A stretch of 64,000 nt of DNA from an uncultured Chloroflexia bacterium (GTDB lineage Bacteria > Chloroflexota > Dehalococcoidia > DSTF01 > WHTK01): the NCBI GenBank assembly GCA_963703905.1, contig CAVPFY010000006.1:34918-98917 (forward strand), in the 5' to 3' direction. Of this stretch, positions 25,887 through 59,483 are shown piece after piece (the first letter of the stretch is position 1; the number at the start of each line of letters is the position of its first letter). A model generated the notes under the pieces. It had not been told where the DNA came from and did no database searches. It saw nothing but the letters and a program-made list of their open reading frames with translations. Made by a program: the position numbers and the translations under genes.

Positions 25887-27226
25887 TCAGGAGGAGAGGC
25901 GTCTCTCGAGGGCTTCCAGACGGCTGGTGACAAGAGCCAGGCCGTAGTGGGCTGCCTCGCGGGCGTCGGGGTTCGGGTTATCCAGGTGTGTGCGATAGGC
26001 CTGTTCGGTGCGTTTTAGCGTCTTGCGCCATTGCTTCAACTGTGCCGGTTTGGCCAGCGCCCAATCTTCGCCCAGCGCCATGCTGGCCTGTAAGGAGCCG
26101 AGCATCAGGGCGGTTCGCGTCGGGTCGGCCCCACCCTGGTGGGCGACCAACTCCGACAGGTCGAAAATGATGCCGTCGGCAGCGTGGGTGTGCAACACCG
26201 GGGCGGCCCAGCCTGCGCTACGCGGGTAGAGCACGTACAGCATGTTCGCGCGTGAGCCAGCGCCACGTCTACCTGTCCGGCGTTTTCGCCCGTGCAGAGT
26301 TGTTGATAGAACTCGCGCGCGAAGGTGGCCGCTTCCTGGTCTACTACCGGGAATTGCATGGCGATCACAGCGGGCACGCCGCGCCGCGCCAACTGCGGCC
26401 CCAGACCCGCGAACGGCTGCCCGCGATCCACCCGTCCGACACTGCACGCATTTAGGACCACCAGGCGCAGTGAGTGGTGATTGTCTAGCAGCCGAGAGAA
26501 GCCATCACCATCCACCACATCGGGCTTGCCGTCTGAACCGTTCAGCGCTACGTAGCCCGTGCCATTCACAAATGCACCGTGGCCGCTGAAGTGGAGAATC
26601 GCGCATTTTTCTTCCAGCAAAGCATCCGATAGCGCCTGCCGGGTCACCGCGCCGTCCAGCACGCGCAGGCGGGCCAGATCCGGGAGCCCGGCGATGACAT
26701 CGGCAATGGCGACGTGCTCCTGTGCCAGAGATAGATCGGGCGCCGCGGGTAGAATGAGGAGGAACTCCACAGGCCAGTCCGTCTTTTGCTCTGTCAACGG
26801 ACCGAACTGCGCGACTTGATCCAGGTAACGGACGAGTGGGGTGCTAATGCTGGTGGCAAAGAAGTGATCGCGCCGCGGGTCGTACAGCAGCTCCCAGGGC
26901 AGGGCATTGATCTCCGGCGCATCCAGGCACAGCCGCACGCGCAGGCCGCGCCCCAGGCGCTCCGCTCGATCCCAGGCCACTCGCAGATGTGTTTCCACCT
27001 CGTCGGGGAAGAGCCAGCGAAACAAGGCTGCACCGGCTAGACGCAACGGCGCCAGGTCGGTTGCCTTGTCCGGTGGCTGCGGGACCGCCCCCAGCGTGTC
27101 CCAGAAGCCCTTCGCGAGGAGCGGCAACGATGCGGTGACGCGCCCCAACCCTTCGGCTTCGGCGGAGAGCGCGTAGTTCGTCTGCTGGCGTGGCGCTACG
27201 GTGAGAGTGAAGTTATTGTATGGCAT
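25887..27226 (-). CDS. CHAT-domain (caspase-like) protein with a C-terminal helical extension (one frameshift near 26250)
   Basis: LPWELLYD, ILHFSGHG (catalytic His), LVVLNACS (catalytic Cys), GVPAVIAMQFPV...A..FAREFY, WAAPVL. Confidence 0.88.
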
Positions 27227-27242
27227 GGGAGCGCTACTGGCG

Positions 27243-27271
27243 AGTATATGCAAAGGCGCACAAATTGACAA
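27243..27271 (-). promoter_or_regulatory. Putative promoter of the CHAT gene
   Basis: On the minus strand TTGTCA (27271-27266), N17, TATACT (27248-27243). Confidence 0.55.
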
Positions 27272-28226: not shown

Positions 28227-28290
28227 GCCCCACGCTCGCGGGGTAAGATCCGCTCCTGAGGGTCGCCTTCTGGCCCGTAGGGAGGACTTG

Positions 28291-29929
28291 ATGCGCCTCT
28301 CACAACTCTTTTCGCAGACACTCCATACCACTCCCGGCGACGATCGGCTGCCCGGTCATCAGTTGCTGGTGCGCGGCGGGTTCGTGCGGCCGCTCGGCGC
28401 GCACGAGTTCGCATTTCTGCCGCCTGGCGTGCGCGTCCGCCGCCGGATTGAGGAGACGGCACGCGCACGGCTAGCGGCAAGCGGCGCGCAAGAGGTGGCG
28501 CTGCCGGGGTCCGGGGACACGCTGGACAATCTGCTTGCAACCACGCGTGCTGTGCTGCAATCCTACCGGCAGTTGCCGGTGTGGCTCTACCGGGTGGCGC
28601 CCGTTGCGAAGGAGGATGCTGCTGGGAGTGGGTTGTTCGGCTCGCAAGATGGCCGTGCCCTTGACCTCTATTGCCTGCATTTGGGTTCTGATGAATCGGC
28701 GACGACTTACCCGCAGGTAATGGCAGTGGTTGGGGATGTTGTGGCAGCCTGTGGCCTGGAAGGGTGGATCGTGGAGGCGGCTGACGCACCTGGCGGCGCG
28801 CCGGCCCTGGCAGCGCACGCCACGGTCTTGCCGCTGGCGGTGGGCGCGTTGGCCGTATTGCACTGTCCGACTTGCGGCTATGCCGCCAGCCAGGAGGCCA
28901 GCGCGCAGCGGGCGGGCTGCACTCGCCGCGGAACCGGCGTTACCCATCGAGCCTGTCGAGACACCCGACTGCAAAACCATCGCCGACCTGGCCCGATTCC
29001 TTCAGATTCCAGCAGCCCGCACGGCGAAGGCCGTCTTTCTGACCGCTGAGCCGGGGCAGAAGGGCGGGCAACTGATTTTCGCGGTGGTACGCGGCGACAC
29101 CGATTTGAACGAAACCAAGCTGCGTCGGGTGCTGGGAGCGCGTTCGCTGGCGCCTGCCAGCAGCGAAGCCATCCGGGCGGCCGGCGCGGAGCCGGGTTAT
29201 GGCTCACCTGTGGGCCTGAACGGCGTGACGGTGATCGTGGACGCCCTTGCAGCCGCGTCGCCGAACCTGGTCGCGGGCGCCAACCGCCTCGGTTATCACT
29301 TACGCAATGTGAATTATCCTCGCGACTACTCGGCCAACGAAGTTGCCGATATCGCTTTGACCCAGGTCGGCGACCCGTGCCCGGCCTGCGGTACGCCGCT
29401 GGCAACCGTTGCGGCTGCGGAGTTGGCCCGAGTCTCACGGATCGGTAACGGCCCGGCGCAGGCAGCGAACCTGACAGTGCTGGATGCCGATGGACGACCC
29501 GCTCCGGTATCCCTGGTGCAGGCTCGCATCTACCTCGACCACCTGCTGGGTGCTCTTGCCGAGGCGCACCACGACGCGCGCGGGCTGATCTGGCCCGCGG
29601 CAGTCACCCCGTATGACGTCTACCTGATGACGGCGGGCAAAGCACTGCCCGAGATTCTGGCAGCCGCCGAACGTCTGTATGAAGAGTTGACACTGGCGGG
29701 TTTCACCGTCCTCTATGACGACCGCGATGAGCGAGCGGGCGTGAAATTCAACGACGCGGATCTGCTTGGGCTGCCGGTGCGCATCGTGGTCGGTGAACGG
29801 GGATTGCGCGAAGGGGTGGTCGAGGTCAAACTCAGGTCAGGTGCCGGAGCCATGCCGGTGTCCCTGGCTGACATGTCGGCTCGATTGACGGAGATGTTGC
29901 GGTCGTCGCGCCCGGCCCCGGAGTTATAG
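28291..29929 (+). CDS. Prolyl-tRNA synthetase paralog with degenerate catalytic domain and retained INS editing and anticodon-binding domains (one frameshift near 28900)
   Basis: ProRS-like N-terminus MRLSQLF.QTL...P....HQLLVRGGFVR; SYRQLP; CPTCGYAA; INS domain TPDCKTI...KAV...VRGDTDLNETKL...GAEPGYGSPVG...GAN; C-terminus GLIWP....P..V...LYDDRDERAGVKFNDADLLGLP.R.VVG. Motifs 2 and 3 are substituted. Strong SD GGAGG. Confidence 0.85.
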
Positions 29930-30889
29930 CGGCGCGGCGGTGGTTGCATTCTCGGGCGATGTAGCCGTGGTGATTGCCGACCCCATGCCGGGGCGCAGGA
30001 GCAATACGGCGCTGAGGATGCAGGCCGTGCCCAACCACTGGCCCAAATCCAGGCGCTCGCCGAAGAACAGGTAGCCGAAGAGGGCCGCGACGACCGGCTC
30101 CCAAGTCGCGACGATGGCGGCCACGCTCACCGGGACCCACTGTACCCCGATGGCGAACGAGAGGCTCGCCAGGAGCGTCGGAACGAGGGCCATGCCGAGG
30201 AGCAGCCCGATGGACTCGGGCGAAGCGAAGCCGCGCGCCAGTTCGGCGCGCGGCGCCAGCGCCAGCAAAGTGCCGGCTCCGATAAGCAGGCCATACACCT
30301 GCACCACCCAGGGCCGGTTGCGCCGCACCAGCACCTTGTTGAAAATACTGTAAAGGCCATACGTCAAGCCTGCAGCCAGGCCCATCAGGATACCGGCAGC
30401 GTTCAGTCGGAGCAACGCCAGGTTATAGATGCGGGCCACCAGCGCTGCACCGAGCACTGCCAGCAATAGCGCTGCCACCCCACGCCGACCCAGGTGTTCG
30501 CCCATCCAGCGCGAGGAAATCACCGCCACCCAGGCCGGCGACGTATACAGCAGGACGGCCGCCACCGCCACGCCGGTCAGATGAATGGCATTGACATAAG
30601 TGACAAAGAAGAGCGCGACCCCGAATATGCCGTATGCCAGGAAGCCCAGCCAGTCGCGGCGAGGCACGCGCAGGTTCACGCGCAAGAGCAGCAGCACAAC
30701 CAGCAAGATGACGCCGCCAAGCGCCCCGCGCAGGGCCGCCGCAGCCAGTGGTGTCATGCTGTGGCGGTCAATCAGCAGCGTGTAGAAGACGCCGATGGTG
30801 GCCCAGAATGTAGCGGCAGTCAGGATGAGCAGGTAGCCGCGCACGGCGTTGTCTCTCAGCGCCGAGGGCGACGAAGATGATGAAGCCAT
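29924..30889 (-). CDS. EamA/DMT-family transporter
   Basis: 10 TM with two EamA repeats; LLYTSPAWVAV, WEPVVAALFGYLFFGERL. The start may be GTG 30844. Confidence 0.9.
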   Translation of the reverse strand: MASSSSSPSALRDNAVRGYLLILTAATFWATIGVFYTLLIDRHSMTPLAAAALRGALGGVILLVVLLLLRVNLRVPRRDWLGFLAYGIFGVALFFVTYVNAIHLTGVAVAAVLLYTSPAWVAVISSRWMGEHLGRRGVAALLLAVLGAALVARIYNLALLRLNAAGILMGLAAGLTYGLYSIFNKVLVRRNRPWVVQVYGLLIGAGTLLALAPRAELARGFASPESIGLLLGMALVPTLLASLSFAIGVQWVPVSVAAIVATWEPVVAALFGYLFFGERLDLGQWLGTACILSAVLLLRPGMGSAITTATSPENATTAAPL

Positions 30890-30939
30890 TGCGCACGATT
30901 ATATCCGGCCACGTCGGGCCGGCCAAAGAGGAGGTTAGG

Positions 30940-31911
30940 ATGGTATCGAAGCTGCTGTATCTTTCGCGGGCGGACGTGCAAGCGATCGGCGTTACTATGC
31001 CTGAGATCATCGCCGCGCTGGAAGTGGCCTTTCGAGAGCACGGCGGGGGGAAGGTGGAGATACCGCCCAAACCTGGCGTACATTCCCGCCCGGATGCTTT
31101 TATCCATGCCATGCCTGCTTATATCCCAGCGTTGCACTCTGTTGGGGTGAAGTGGGTGAGCGGCTACCCGGAGAACTACAAACACGGACTGCCCTACATC
31201 AGCGGGTTGCTCATCCTTAACGATGACGAAACCGGCTTGCCGCTGGCGGTGATGGACTGCACCTGGATCACGGGTGCTCGCACCGGCGCGGCGACTGCCC
31301 TGGCGGCGCGCTACCTGGCGCGGCCGGAATCCGAGACCGTGGGAGTGCTGGGTTGCGGCGTGCAGGGGCGGACCAACGTGGCGGCGCTGGCGGTGGCGTT
31401 TCCGCTGAAGCGAGTACGGGCCTACGACCGCACGCGCGCCAACGCCGAACGCTACGCCGCCGACATCCGCGAGCGTCATGGTCTCGAGGTCGAGGTGGTG
31501 TCTGAGCCGCGCCGGGCCGTGACGGGTTGCGACTTGGTGGTGACGGCGGGCCCTATCTTGCGGACTCCCCACGCAACCATTCAGCCCGGTTGGCTGGACG
31601 CAGGGGCCTTCGCCTCATTGGTGGACTTTGACTCTTACTGGTCGGGCGCGGCGATGCGCGAGGCTGACAAGTTTTGCACAGACGATGTGCCGCAACTCGA
31701 GCACTACCGCGAGATCGGCTACTTCCAGGACATTCCGCCCATCCACGCCAGCCTGGGCGAGTTGGTCACCGGCAAGAAGCCGGGCCGCCAGTCGGCGCGC
31801 GAGCGCACACTGGCCTGCAACCTCGGCCTCGCACTGGACGACATGGCGACCGCGCCGCTGGTCTATCGTGGTGCCGTGGATCGCGGCATCGGAACCTGGC
31901 TGGAGTTGTAG
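30940..31911 (+). CDS. Ornithine cyclodeaminase / mu-crystallin family protein
   Basis: HAMPAY, GVKWVSGYPEN, LNDDETGLPLAVMDCTWITGARTGAATA, GCGVQG, GLALDDMA. Substrate unknown. Confidence 0.9.
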   Translation: MVSKLLYLSRADVQAIGVTMPEIIAALEVAFREHGGGKVEIPPKPGVHSRPDAFIHAMPAYIPALHSVGVKWVSGYPENYKHGLPYISGLLILNDDETGLPLAVMDCTWITGARTGAATALAARYLARPESETVGVLGCGVQGRTNVAALAVAFPLKRVRAYDRTRANAERYAADIRERHGLEVEVVSEPRRAVTGCDLVVTAGPILRTPHATIQPGWLDAGAFASLVDFDSYWSGAAMREADKFCTDDVPQLEHYREIGYFQDIPPIHASLGELVTGKKPGRQSARERTLACNLGLALDDMATAPLVYRGAVDRGIGTWLEL

Positions 31912-56215: not shown

Positions 56216-56821
56216 ATGACCACGCCGCGCAAACTGCTGATCGCCACGCGCAACGCCGGCAAGGTCCGCGAATATCGGGAGCTGCTCGCCGCTCTGCCGC
56301 TGGAAGTGACCTACCTGGATGCCGAGGGCATTACGCTGGAGGTGGAAGAGACCGGCGATACCTTCGCCGACAACGCCGTGCTGAAGGCGACCACCTACGC
56401 CCGCGCCAGCGGCCTGTGGACGTGGGCCGACGATTCGGGGCTGGAAGTGGATGCGCTGGGCGGCGCGCCGGGCGTCTATTCGGCGCGCTACGCCGGGCCG
56501 AATGCCAGCGACGCCGACCGCTATCGCAAGCTGCTGGACGCGCTGGCCGGCGTGCCGTGGGACCAGCGCACCGCGCGCTTTCGCTGCGTCGTGGCGCTGG
56601 CGACCCCGGAGGGCGGAGACGTGCGTACCACCGAGGGTGTATGCGAGGGCATCATCGCTTTCGGCCCGCTGGGCAACAACGGCTTCGGCTACGATCCGGT
56701 ATTCTATCTGCCCGATCGGGGCGTCACCATGGCGCAACTGCCGCCGGAGGAGAAGCACGCCATCAGCCACCGCGGCCGCGCCGCGCGGGCGATGGTTGCG
56801 GTGCTGTCAGGAATGATATAG
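56216..56821 (+). CDS. rdgB: Non-canonical purine NTP pyrophosphatase (RdgB/HAM1)
   Basis: [67 protein letters not shown]. Confidence 0.95.
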
Positions 56822-56931
56822 GGACGCGTCCGTTCACAGTCCGGCTTATTGGGCTTTGCTTGACAAAGCGAGAGGCACCATCCACGGCGCGCTAAAGCGG
56901 CCCTGTGGCTACAAGCGGGCCTTTGCAAGCG

Positions 56932-57417
56932 TCACACCAGGTCGGCGATGCTTGCGGCAAGCTGCTCGCGCGTCTCCGCCAGCAGTTGCGGGATCAGCTT
57001 CACGTCGCCCAGCACGGCCATGAAGTTGTTGTCGCCGCTCCAGCGGGGGACGATGTGCAGGTGGACGTGGTCTTTCACGCCTGCGCCCGCCGCCGCGCCG
57101 ATGTTGGCCCCGACGTTGAAGCCGTCGGGGCGCATCGTCGCCCGCAGGGCGCGCATCCCCAGCGTCACCATCGCCATCAGACCGGCCATTTCGTCGGCGT
57201 CCAGCGCTTCCAGCGTTTCGACGTGACGATAGGGCACGGCCATGATGTGGCCGCTGTTGTAAGGATACTTGTTCAGCACCAGGAACGCGCGTTCGCCGCG
57301 GTGCACGATCAGGCTCGCGGCGTCATCTCCCGCGTCCAACATGACACAGAAGATGCACCCATCCTGCTTGTGACTCCGGATGTACTCCATCCGCCACGGC
57401 GTGAATGCGCGTTCCAT
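56932..57417 (-). CDS. HIT-family hydrolase
   Basis: PWRMEYI, CIFC, LNKYPYNSGH, GFNVGANIG..AGAG...HVHLHIVPRWSGD. Confidence 0.93.
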   Translation of the reverse strand: MERAFTPWRMEYIRSHKQDGCIFCVMLDAGDDAASLIVHRGERAFLVLNKYPYNSGHIMAVPYRHVETLEALDADEMAGLMAMVTLGMRALRATMRPDGFNVGANIGAAAGAGVKDHVHLHIVPRWSGDNNFMAVLGDVKLIPQLLAETREQLAASIADLV

Positions 57418-57448
57418 CGGCTCTCTCTTCCGCTCCTTGCTCCCTGCT

Positions 57449-59483
57449 CTACTTTCCCAATACCTTCAGGGCGTGCGCCGCCACATTCTCCGGCGTGATC
57501 CCCAGGTGGGCCATCACCGCCGGCCCCTTGCCCGACTCGCCGAAACGGTTGATGCCGACCATCGCGCCCCCGGCCCCGGCGTAGCGCTCCCAACCTTGCG
57601 TGATGCCCGCTTCCACGGTCACACGCGCGGCGATGGCAGGGGGCAGCACGCTGTCGCGGTAGGCCGCATCCTGCGCGTCGAACAGCTCCCAGCTGGGCAT
57701 GCTGACCACACGCGCCGGCCACGTCCTGCTGCGCCAGCAGGTCGCGCGCCGCCATTGCCACGGAAACCTCCGACCCTGTGCCGATCAGGATCACGTCGGG
57801 TTGCCCGTTCTCGGCGTCGGCCAGCACGTAGGCCCCGCGTTCCAGTGTGCCGGGCGCACCGGTCCCGGATAGCACGGGCAGGTTCTGGCGGGTGAGCAGT
57901 AGCGCTACCGGGCCGTCGCGGTGCGTCAGGGCATAGCGCCAGGCTGCGGCGGTCTCGTTGGCATCGGCGGGGCGAATGACGGTCAAGGAAGGGATCGCCC
58001 GCAGCGCCATGGCATGCTCGATGGGCTGGTGGGTCGGGCCGTCCTCGCCCAGACCCACCGAGTCGTGCGTCCAGACGAACGTCACTGCCGTTCCCATAAT
58101 GGCGGCCAGCCGGACCGTCGGGCGCATGTAGTCGGAGAAGACCAGGAACGTCCCGCCATAGGGGAAGACGCCGCCGTGCAGCGCCAGCCCGTTCAGCGTC
58201 GCGCCCATGGCGTGCTCGCGGATGCCCCAGCGCACGTAGCGCCCGGCGAAGTCGCCCGGCTTGATATCGGTGACGCCCTTGAAGCGGGTGTTGTTCGACG
58301 GCGTCAGGTCGGCGGAGCCGCCTATCAACGTCGGGATGCGCGGGGCGATGGCATCCAGTACTTTGCCGGAGGCTGAGCGCGTCGCCAGCTTGTCTCCCGG
58401 TTTCCACACCGGCATGTCGGCGTCCCAGCCCTCGGGCAGCACACCGGCCAGCGCGTCTGCGCAGCATCGCCGCCTGTTCCGGGTATTCCCGTTCGTAGCC
58501 GGGCCACAATGCTTCCCAGGCTGCCTGCCGTTCGCGCCCGGCATCCAGTGTTGACCGGTACAGCGCCAGCACATCGTCCGGTAACCAGAACGCTTCGTCG
58601 GCGGGCATCCCGAGCGCTTGCTTGGTCAGGCGGATTTCGTCCGCGCCCAACGGCGAGCCGTGCGCCTCAGCCGTGTCCTGCTTGTTCGGGCTGCCATAGG
58701 CGATGTGCGCCTTGCAGACGATGAGAGAGGGCCGGTCTGTCGCCGCTTGCGCCTGCACGATGGCTGCCTCAATGGCCGGGCATATCGTAGGCGTTCACGG
58801 TCTGCACGTGCCAGCCGTACGCCCCGAAGCGCGAGCGGGACGTTGTCGCTGTACGATAGCGATGTCGGGCCGTCAATGCTGATGTTGTTGTCGTCGTAGA
58901 AGTAGATCAGCTTGCCCAGGCCCAGGTGACCGGCCAGCGAAGCCGCCTCGTGGCTGATGCCTTCCTCGAGGTCGCCGTCGCTGCAAATGGCATAGGTGTA
59001 GTGGTCCAGCAATGCGTAGCCCGGCCGGTTGAAGTTGGCCGCCAGGAAAGCCTCGGCCAGCGCCATGCCCACGCCGGTAGCGAAGCCCTGGCCCAGTGGG
59101 CCGGTGGTCGTGTCTACGCCGGGCGTCACGCCGTATTCCGGATGGCCGGGCGTGATACTGCCCAGTTGCCGGAACTGCTTGAGCTGTGCCAGCGGCACGT
59201 CGTAGCCGGCCAGGTGCAGCAAGGCGTAGAGCAGCATGGAACCATGACCGGCCGAGAGGATGAACCGGTCGCGGTTGAGCCACTTCGGGTCCGCCGGGTT
59301 GTGGCGCAGGAAGCGCGTCCAGAGGACGTGAGCGACGGTGGCCATCCCCATGGGCATGCCGGGGTGACCCGAGTCGGCGGCTTGCACGGCGTCCATTGCC
59401 AGCCCGCGAATGACGTTGGCCGCAGTGACGTCCAGATCACTGAAAGGCGCCGGATGATGCGAAAGATTGGCTACGGTTTGCAC
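57449..59483 (-). CDS. tkt: Transketolase (frameshifted)
   Basis: [64 protein letters not shown]...[24 protein letters not shown]. Confidence 0.96.

Follow-up and report, generated by a model that had tools for sequence, protein, structure and literature searches.

What is left for a prolyl-tRNA synthetase (ProRS) to do once the site that charges tRNA has gone? The question is raised by a gene at positions 28291 to 29929 (+ strand) of the window, by which we mean the whole 64,000-nt stretch analyzed here, taken from contig CAVPFY010000006.1 of an uncultured Chloroflexia bacterium. The gene product is a whole-length homolog of the bacterial-type ProRS (E. coli ProS; E. faecalis, 2J3L; S. aureus, 5ZNJ), with the same order of parts (N-terminal half of the catalytic core, INS editing domain, C-terminal half of the core, anticodon-binding domain [ABD]), the same INS active-site residues, and the same ABD motif. 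Unlike those enzymes, it has no aminoacylation site, so that any tRNA it acts on must have been charged by a different enzyme. An earlier note on this DNA had suggested that the catalytically dead protein might be a full-length trans-editing factor that finds tRNAPro by its anticodon, or else a regulator that binds tRNA. Our results support this proposal, with the hydrolysis itself being a step that we infer, and from comparative sequence evidence we put the probability that the dead ProRS is an anticodon-guided trans-editor (deacylase) of Ala-tRNAPro at roughly 60%.

The catalytic site has been lost piece by piece (residue numbers below are those of the restored reading frame). A segment comprising the N terminus and the motif 1 region (residues 1 to 72, positions 28291 to 28506) is still matched by the NCBIfam proS models. 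It is followed by what remains of the N-terminal half of the class II catalytic core (residues 73 to 205, positions 28507 to 28906), in which GSGDTLDNLL (residues 73 to 82, positions 28507 to 28536) replaces about 39 residues of canonical ProRS, GPTHEE among them. The TXE loop is deleted, which appears as a 29-residue gap in the pairwise alignment with a full-length relative. The place of motif 2 (28588 to 28677) reads YRVAPVAKEDAAGSGLFGSQDGRALDLYCL; in E. coli numbering, R140 has become K, E142 has become D, R151 has become G, and R153 has become Q. In the decayed C-terminal half of the core (residues 363 to 440, positions 29378 to 29611), EVGHIF.LG is replaced by ELARVSRIG (29420 to 29446) and MGCYGIG..R of motif 3 by LVQARIYLDHL (29513 to 29545), with loss of G.G and a change of R450 to H. 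The earlier note had read all of these segments correctly and had placed them in a low-error region where indels could not explain them. For the motif losses this holds, since three-frame translation showed substitutions and an in-frame deletion rather than frame artefacts, with no canonical motifs hidden in the alternative frames; for the gene as a whole it does not, as an extra base is present (see below).

At the seven catalytic positions mapped (E. coli T109, E111, R140, E142, R151, R153, and R450), the window protein has no matches at all, and its near-identical ortholog P0001 keeps 2 of 12 catalytic residues. Pfam gave no match to the catalytic core model tRNA-synt_2b (PF00587) in the window protein. 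The two halves of the gene score 62.9 and 179.7 bits against TIGR00409, the bacterial-type proS equivalog (cut-off, 306.7 bits), and 79.7 and 237.2 bits against NF006625 (cut-off, 558 bits), and a profile search of its own genome gave the locus no match above the curated proS cut-off. Having lost the proline-binding TXE loop and, in motifs 2 and 3, the arginines that bind ATP, the protein would be expected neither to activate proline nor to charge tRNA, and it is very probably a non-charging member of a degenerate ProRS family.

The editing and anticodon-binding parts have fared differently and are as well preserved as the earlier note had claimed. INS (residues 223 to 362, positions 28958 to 29377) scores 89.6 bits against Pfam tRNA_edit, and the ABD (residues 441 to 545 with the stop codon, positions 29612 to 29929) scores 60.7 bits against HGTP_anticodon. 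INS has the motifs TAKAVF, VRGDTDLNETKL, and PGYGSPVG, and the window protein has the same residue as E. coli ProRS at each of T257, I263, L266, K279, D350, and H369. The first three lie in TPDCKTIADLARFL (28961 to 29002), the equivalent of K279 (K246 of the window protein) in TAKAVF (29021 to 29038), and that of H369 in GYHLRNVNYPRD (29273 to 29326), with the loop PGYGSPVG at 29192 to 29215; a PF04073 match, the lysine, the GxxxP loop, and the gatekeeper histidine, all features of the INS superfamily, are thus present. Editing is lost on a K279A substitution; aminoacyl specificity is determined by L266 and H369, the latter serving as the gatekeeper against Pro-tRNAPro (bioRxiv 10.1101/2020.09.11.293571). 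The ABD motif DDRDERAGVKFNDADLLGLP lies at 29717 to 29776, and the ABD residues D, R, G, K, D, G, and P do not vary among 150 relatives. INS hydrolyzes Ala-tRNAPro, and its tRNA specificity comes from anticodon bases G35/G36 by way of the ABD, unlike that of ProXp-ala (PMC3973320; PMC11295145).

The remnant between these domains also seems to have kept its shape. AlphaFold2, run on P0001 with a 79-row family alignment, gave a model with a mean pLDDT of 93.9 and a pTM of 0.90, catalytic remnant included. The best structural matches of this model were the bacterial ProRS structures 2J3L (E. faecalis, over 469 columns) and 2J3M, at TMq values of 0.75 to 0.78, and the best sequence match to known structures was 5ZNJ (E = 9e-62). 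The class II scaffold is predicted to be kept as structure; it probably acts as a frame that holds INS and the ABD in the right geometry, and perhaps also as a dimer interface.

The span from 28291 to 29929, which the earlier note had treated as one gene, is not one open reading frame (ORF) as assembled, its 1,639 nt being no multiple of three. A frame 1 ORF runs from the ATG at 28291 to a stop at 29049 and holds the N-terminal ProRS-like part, and INS and the ABD lie in an overlapping frame 2 ORF that ends at the stop at 29929. We compared the locus with L029, a 1,916-nt short-read metagenome contig from the Joint Genome Institute (sample 3300047519) that is ~97.5% identical to it. The alignment has a single indel, an extra A at window position 28900 that is absent from L029, which moves the reading from frame 1 to frame 2; the L029 ORF (product P0001) is intact and reads ...CPTCGYAASQEAARSGRAALAAEP... 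in one frame. Deleting base 28900 yields an ORF of 1,638 nt, with 545 codons and a stop.

That the extra base belongs to the assembly rather than to the organism is suggested by the housekeeping gene of the same genome. A proS with intact motifs does exist elsewhere, so the window copy is not the only one: the only catalytically competent proS of the window genome (G000:C1:526936-528659; locus L001 1501-3263) has perfect motifs (GPTHEE, TKFRDEQRPRMGLVRGREF, GIEMGHIF, and MGCYGIGTTR). Two single-base insertions move its reading from frame 1 to frame 2 and on to frame 3, an example being the extra G in ...GCGATC[G]CCGGTCCAAGCC... Because an essential gene cannot be broken twice and there is no archaeal-type replacement, we regard both insertions as assembly errors. 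Together with a "completeness" score of only 60% for 3.93 Mb in 8 contigs, they point to an assembly that inserts bases at roughly one per kilobase. Against this background, one insertion in a 1.6-kb paralog is expected, and the frameshift at 28900 most likely arose in the assembly.

With INS and the ABD on a ProRS-like scaffold, the protein should bind tRNAPro by its anticodon and clear Ala-tRNAPro made by another synthetase. As in canonical ProRS, the ABD would bind tRNAPro at G35/G36; the 3' end of the tRNA would enter the INS pocket, and Ala-tRNAPro mischarged by the working ProRS would be hydrolyzed there, while the conserved histidine would block hydrolysis of Pro-tRNAPro. The product would be a free-standing anticodon-guided proofreader, "ProRS-ed," and the family would normally be paired with an INS-less archaeal-type ProRS, the two forming a split ProRS.

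Such an architecture would differ from the proofreaders described so far. As currently catalogued, tRNAPro proofreading factors are the INS domain, in cis, and eight families of trans-editors with a single domain each; a 2024 review describes the INS-superfamily trans-editors as all single-domain, and trans-editors generally lack RNA-binding domains (PMC11295145). ProXp-ala (PrdX) shares with the window protein the predicted activity (Ala-tRNAPro hydrolysis in trans), the PF04073 superfamily, and the typical INS-less ProRS partner, but it is a single domain that reads the acceptor stem at G72/A73 (PMC3973320), whereas the window protein, with its ABD and dead scaffold, should read G35/G36. The free-standing trans-editors are single-domain proteins of ~150 to 250 aa without an RNA-binding module, whereas the window protein has 545 aa with an ABD and a core scaffold, and it scores 15 bits against TIGR00011 YbaK_EbsC (cut-off, 153). 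The same logic is found in crenarchaeal ThrRS-ed, a non-synthetic paralog that keeps the editing and anticodon-binding domains and proofreads for the editing-less ThrRS-cat (PMC11295145). ThrRS-ed belongs to an unrelated synthetase family and editing fold, however, and has lost its catalytic domain, whereas most degenerate ProRSs keep a full-length decayed core and only a 400-aa Anaerolineales form has shed it. ProRSx of Streptomyces and Kitasatospora is also a diverged bacterial-type ProRS paralog beside a housekeeping enzyme, but it is active, is encoded next to tRNAProX, and changes decoding (PMC10404621), whereas the window protein has no catalytic motifs.

In the open-access literature, we found no description of a dead full-length ProRS keeping INS and the ABD. 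ProRS-ed would be a multi-domain class of INS-superfamily trans-editor not found in that literature. If this is true, it adds an architecture with a different tRNA-recognition logic (anticodon instead of acceptor stem), a second natural pair in which synthetase and editor are split, and a clear example of subfunctionalization that recurs once a synthetase has been displaced.

Collecting orthologs, a check that the earlier note had suggested, showed that the window protein is part of a large family. In a large protein collection, P0001 represents the same protein in another sample, and P0002, P0079, and P0080 are relatives of ~575 aa (P0002 being 41% identical overall to the window protein). 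The string LARV in place of EVGHIF is common to the window protein and all three relatives. At motif 2, AAGSG is common to the window protein and P0002 only, and P0079 and P0080 have related, different strings; the degenerate motif 3 segment reads LV.A.I..D in P0002 and LAC... in P0079 and P0080. When a profile of the four (P0001, P0002, P0079, and P0080) was run against 1.84 billion representatives, the best 150 matches scored 405 to 867 bits, and 100 of these 150 aligned sequences keep at most 6 of 12 catalytic residues. We defined the degenerate family as bacterial-type ProRS homologs with ≤6/12 catalytic residues and conserved INS and ABD that fall in an all-degenerate clade. Full-length degenerate sequences make up at least 96 representative clusters (≤50% identity), and many degenerate relatives have 510 to 550 aa with the same TXE-loop deletion. 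Across the 100 degenerate relatives, the equivalents of T257, I263, L266, K279, D350, and H369 are 87 to 100% conserved, those of K279, D350, and H369 at 100%, and the catalytic residues 5 to 65%; the INS lysine is found in 100/100 and the GxxxP loop in 98 to 100%.

In trees built from all columns or from the INS and ABD columns only, degenerate sequences cluster far more than expected by chance, and the degenerate state has at least four independent origins on the full tree and at least seven on the INS and ABD tree. On both trees, the window protein sits in a well-supported all-degenerate clade of 8 to 9 rows, far from the canonical ProRS of its own genus. A recent duplication of the genome's own proS was ruled out, given an identity of 47% from INS to the ABD (residues 215 to 520) and membership of a distant old clade.

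Some members belong to named organisms. Chloroflexus aurantiacus J-10-fl has a 525-aa copy (ABY35009.1) with a basic patch, WGQRRRKRPQSRQR, in the place of motif 2, and intact copies of 524 to 529 aa are present in ten further sampled Chloroflexus species (11 species genomes in all). An Arg/Lys-rich patch W[SCG][WQL]RRR[KQR][RQ]... at motif 2 is conserved across the sampled Chloroflexus species (loci L143 to L152) and may be a new RNA-contact surface. Roseiflexus sp. RS-1 has a 571-aa member (ABQ90656.1). Another member is a 400-aa Anaerolineales "mini" form (WKZ39828.1; L158, G303:C1:3519490-3520458) made of ~60 N-terminal residues, INS, and the ABD, from which the catalytic core is gone; a second genome of its family f31 (G088), without a survey match at threshold, shows the same 416-aa open frame as G303. 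Source names are inconsistent ("proline--tRNA ligase," "YbaK/EbsC family protein," and "hypothetical"), with the mini form WKZ39828.1 carrying the RefSeq-style name YbaK/EbsC family protein. Such inconsistency, even in Chloroflexus aurantiacus and Roseiflexus, can mislead counts of aminoacyl-tRNA synthetase complements. Copies in two genomes are split and have in-frame stops (G328:C1:3287654-3289351, TAA; G252:C44:17923-19390, TAG), and the degenerate family thus also decays to true pseudogenes in some lineages.

The conservation pattern of the family is inverted relative to that of canonical ProRS. We compared mean pairwise identities in a degenerate set (n = 96) and a canonical set (n = 35); the latter is taxonomically broader, which inflates the INS and ABD ratios but renders the core's loss of conservation all the more striking. 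The N-terminal half of the core has an identity of 0.225 against 0.494 and the C-terminal half one of 0.346 against 0.502, and residues 1 to 72 remain ProRS-like and moderately conserved (0.40 against 0.51). In INS, the degenerate set reaches 0.509 against 0.357, and in the ABD, 0.443 against 0.383.

The two strains tell of selection on the window gene itself, for which the earlier note had proposed ratios of nonsynonymous to synonymous substitution rates (dN/dS) by domain. The window locus and L029 differ by 19 synonymous and 17 non-synonymous substitutions. The overall dN/dS is 0.33, with values of 0.09 for INS, 0.27 for the ABD, 0.56 for the N-terminal half of the catalytic core, and 0.30 for the C-terminal half. 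INS and the ABD are jointly below neutrality (p = 0.005), and the catalytic remnants are marginally so (p = 0.06). Purifying selection on INS, as read from the sequences, argues that the protein is still used.

Which enzyme would supply the mischarged tRNA? We surveyed 401 genomes of the window's phylum with TIGR00409 for the bacterial-type ProRS and TIGR00408 for the INS-less archaeal type. A canonical bacterial-type match (E ≤ 1e-140) was present in 200 genomes, 49 of which also have an archaeal-type ProRS. The archaeal type is also found in 28 of the 33 genomes with an intermediate-score TIGR00409 match (the degenerate candidates) and in all 16 with weak TIGR00409 matches only (E > 1e-35; families f31 and f35), one of which, G303 (f31), was examined and carries the mini form. 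The intermediate and canonical classes differ at a Fisher p of 4e-11 without correction for phylogeny. Five intermediate-class genomes are without an archaeal-type ProRS, namely, the window genome and four others; at least three of these four have two partial matches each or belong to genera that are otherwise canonical, and they look like fragmented canonical genes. Thirty candidate genomes were re-examined with the degenerate profile, and 20 have full-length intact ORFs, the rest having the mini form, ORFs cut at contig ends or split between contigs, or the broken copies of G328 and G252.

Individual genomes show the pairing directly. The Ardenticatenia metagenome-assembled genome (MAG) G041 and Anaerolineae Ch132 (G042) each have a degenerate copy and an archaeal-type ProRS above the curated cut-off, and all of G041 to G045 have the archaeal type (TIGR00408). 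The Ardenticatenia copy resembles the clade members P0088 and P0093 in its motif strings TAKSLF, PGYGSP.G, and LLGRYRF. A profile search of genome contigs with the pattern [AP]GVKFxDAD, which is shared with canonical ProRS, returned 80 loci, 75 of them canonical (10 to 12 of 12 catalytic residues) and only L037 and L043 clearly degenerate. Eight genomes of family f44 (G075, G183, G192, G246, G254, G270, G278, and G334) have the two proS types as a same-strand tandem, with the archaeal-type gene immediately upstream of the bacterial-type one and gaps of 47 to 874 nt, and the bacterial-type copy of G254 is already eroding (7/12 catalytic residues). We infer that a trans-editor is most useful where charging is done by an INS-less archaeal-type ProRS, a view in keeping with where the family occurs, with the tandem operons, and with its repeated evolution. 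The wider scenario, in which Chloroflexota repeatedly split ProRS so that the archaeal type charges and the displaced bacterial type proofreads, while in the window genome the proofreader does something that the cis INS cannot, is one that we put forward tentatively.

Several observations weigh against a trans-editing role for the window protein. We found no TIGR00408 match above 70 bits in its own genome and no archaeal-type ProRS. The working ProRS is bacterial-type and has an apparently competent INS of its own (TLKAVF, AGSASPVG, and VHLRNVNY), with the Lys and His in place. We found no ortholog in any of 40 relatives, one of them a same-genus genome that is 96% complete; each of these has only a canonical ProRS, 36 to 42% identical to the window paralog. 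The window copy as assembled is frameshifted. In the dN/dS analysis, which compares two strains over 36 substitutions, the contrast between domain classes is not significant (Fisher p = 0.30), so that we rely on the family-level contrast instead, and the survey statistic is uncorrected for phylogeny. A PF04073 scan of 38 genomes, which compared the distribution of the dead ProRS with that of free-standing INS-like proteins, speaks for neither side: many genomes with a dead ProRS also have a YbaK-like ORF, and the model cannot separate YbaK from ProXp-ala. The frameshift, the usual INS-less archaeal-type partner, and the absence of that partner from the window genome had all been missed by the earlier note.

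Since the window genome has no archaeal-type ProRS and its canonical proS includes INS, the family's usual rationale is not applicable there. The protein would be either a redundant second editor or one with a somewhat different substrate or role; candidates are another aminoacyl substrate, Ala-tRNAPro that has already left the synthetase, and the docking of a YbaK-type deacylase. The PF04073 scan detected no free-standing INS-like ORF in the window genome. The same-genus genome G001 has a free-standing 168-aa tRNA_edit ORF (L163 523-1029, − strand; G001:C55), which is missing from the window genome, where the dead ProRS is present instead. Species of the window's own family differ in ProRS type, and in genus g3 of that family, certain species carry the archaeal type alone and others the bacterial type alone. 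The lineage may have exchanged one type of synthetase for another while retaining the proofreader, or the proofreader may have arrived by lateral transfer; the homolog of the upstream DUF5656 gene in the same-genus genome is only 30% identical and stands in another context. Elsewhere in the scan, six genomes with only an archaeal-type ProRS were without any PF04073 match (G004, G005, G049, G050, G074, and G109).

The protein might instead bind tRNAPro without hydrolyzing anything, as a regulator or sensor of charging or as a tRNA-specificity platform for a YbaK-type deacylase, possibly in a heterodimer with ProRS. Coexistence with an editing-competent ProRS argues for a non-redundant role, and the N-terminal and motif 1 region, which forms the dimer interface, is still conserved. 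YbaK has no tRNA specificity and works in complex with ProRS (PMC3973320; PMC11295145), and in the Ardenticatenia MAG G041, a free-standing tRNA_edit ORF stands directly upstream of the dead ProRS. We nevertheless consider this unlikely, because a protein that only binds would have no need to keep the INS Lys, Asp, and His at 100%, along with the GxxxP loop and the hydrophobic pocket, in lineages whose degeneration was independent.

Less likely again is that the window copy is a pseudogene, a redundant relic beside an INS-bearing ProRS that is decaying after a real and recent frameshift. The frameshift at 28900, the failure to find an archaeal-type partner in the genome, the 0/40 count among relatives, the dN/dS of 0.56 in the catalytic remnant, and the stop-bearing split copies of G328 and G252 would all fit such a decay. 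Against it, the frame is intact in the 97.5%-identical strain, INS has a dN/dS of 0.09 and lies with the ABD below neutrality, and one indel in 1.6 kb is the assembly background in a genome whose only functional proS carries two insertions that cannot be real. Least of all do we expect a protein that is still a synthetase, whether with an unorthodox active site or as a ProRSx-like isoform charging an unusual tRNA: a high-confidence fold is predicted for the full-length class II scaffold and active ProRS paralogs such as ProRSx exist (PMC10404621), but the R, E, R, and R of motif 2 have become K, D, G, and Q, the G.G..R of motif 3 and the TXE loop are lost, the relatives have not conserved the catalytic segments, as any active site common to them would demand, ARAGORN found no tRNA gene within the 64-kb window, and ProRSx is confined to Actinomycetes, where it lies beside a tRNAProX gene (PMC10404621).

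Trans-editing of Ala-tRNAPro thus remains the reading that we prefer, and the surroundings of the gene can be described briefly. The upstream signals noted earlier stood up in part: the Shine-Dalgarno sequence GGGAGGA is present at 28280 to 28286 (+ strand), with its GGAGG core 5 nt before the ATG at 28291, but the consensus promoter was not borne out, as a promoter scan upstream of 28291 found no sigma-70 consensus. The neighbors of the dead ProRS in the window are the upstream DUF5656 gene, an EamA gene, an ornithine cyclodeaminase (OCD)/mu-crystallin gene in another transcription unit, and ApbA. The OCD/mu-crystallin family gene (30877 to 31911, + strand; 223 bits) lies two genes downstream and is possibly linked to proline metabolism; we found nothing tying it to the ProRS paralog. 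An operon for proline or hydroxyproline catabolism was seen neither around the window gene nor at L030 (the source of P0002), L037, or L043. A CHAT-domain gene (25887 to 27271, − strand) is split into two overlapping ORFs in different frames (25887 to 26447 and 26105 to 27271), which is probably another assembly frameshift. In the Ardenticatenia MAG, the free-standing tRNA_edit (YbaK-like) ORF, of 169 aa (G041:C48:56161-56523, − strand), is divergently oriented upstream of the dead ProRS (56664 to 58370, + strand). An EamA gene follows the dead ProRS both in that MAG (L037 7763-8692) and in the window (29924 to 30889); this is a common family, and the shared position may be due to chance.

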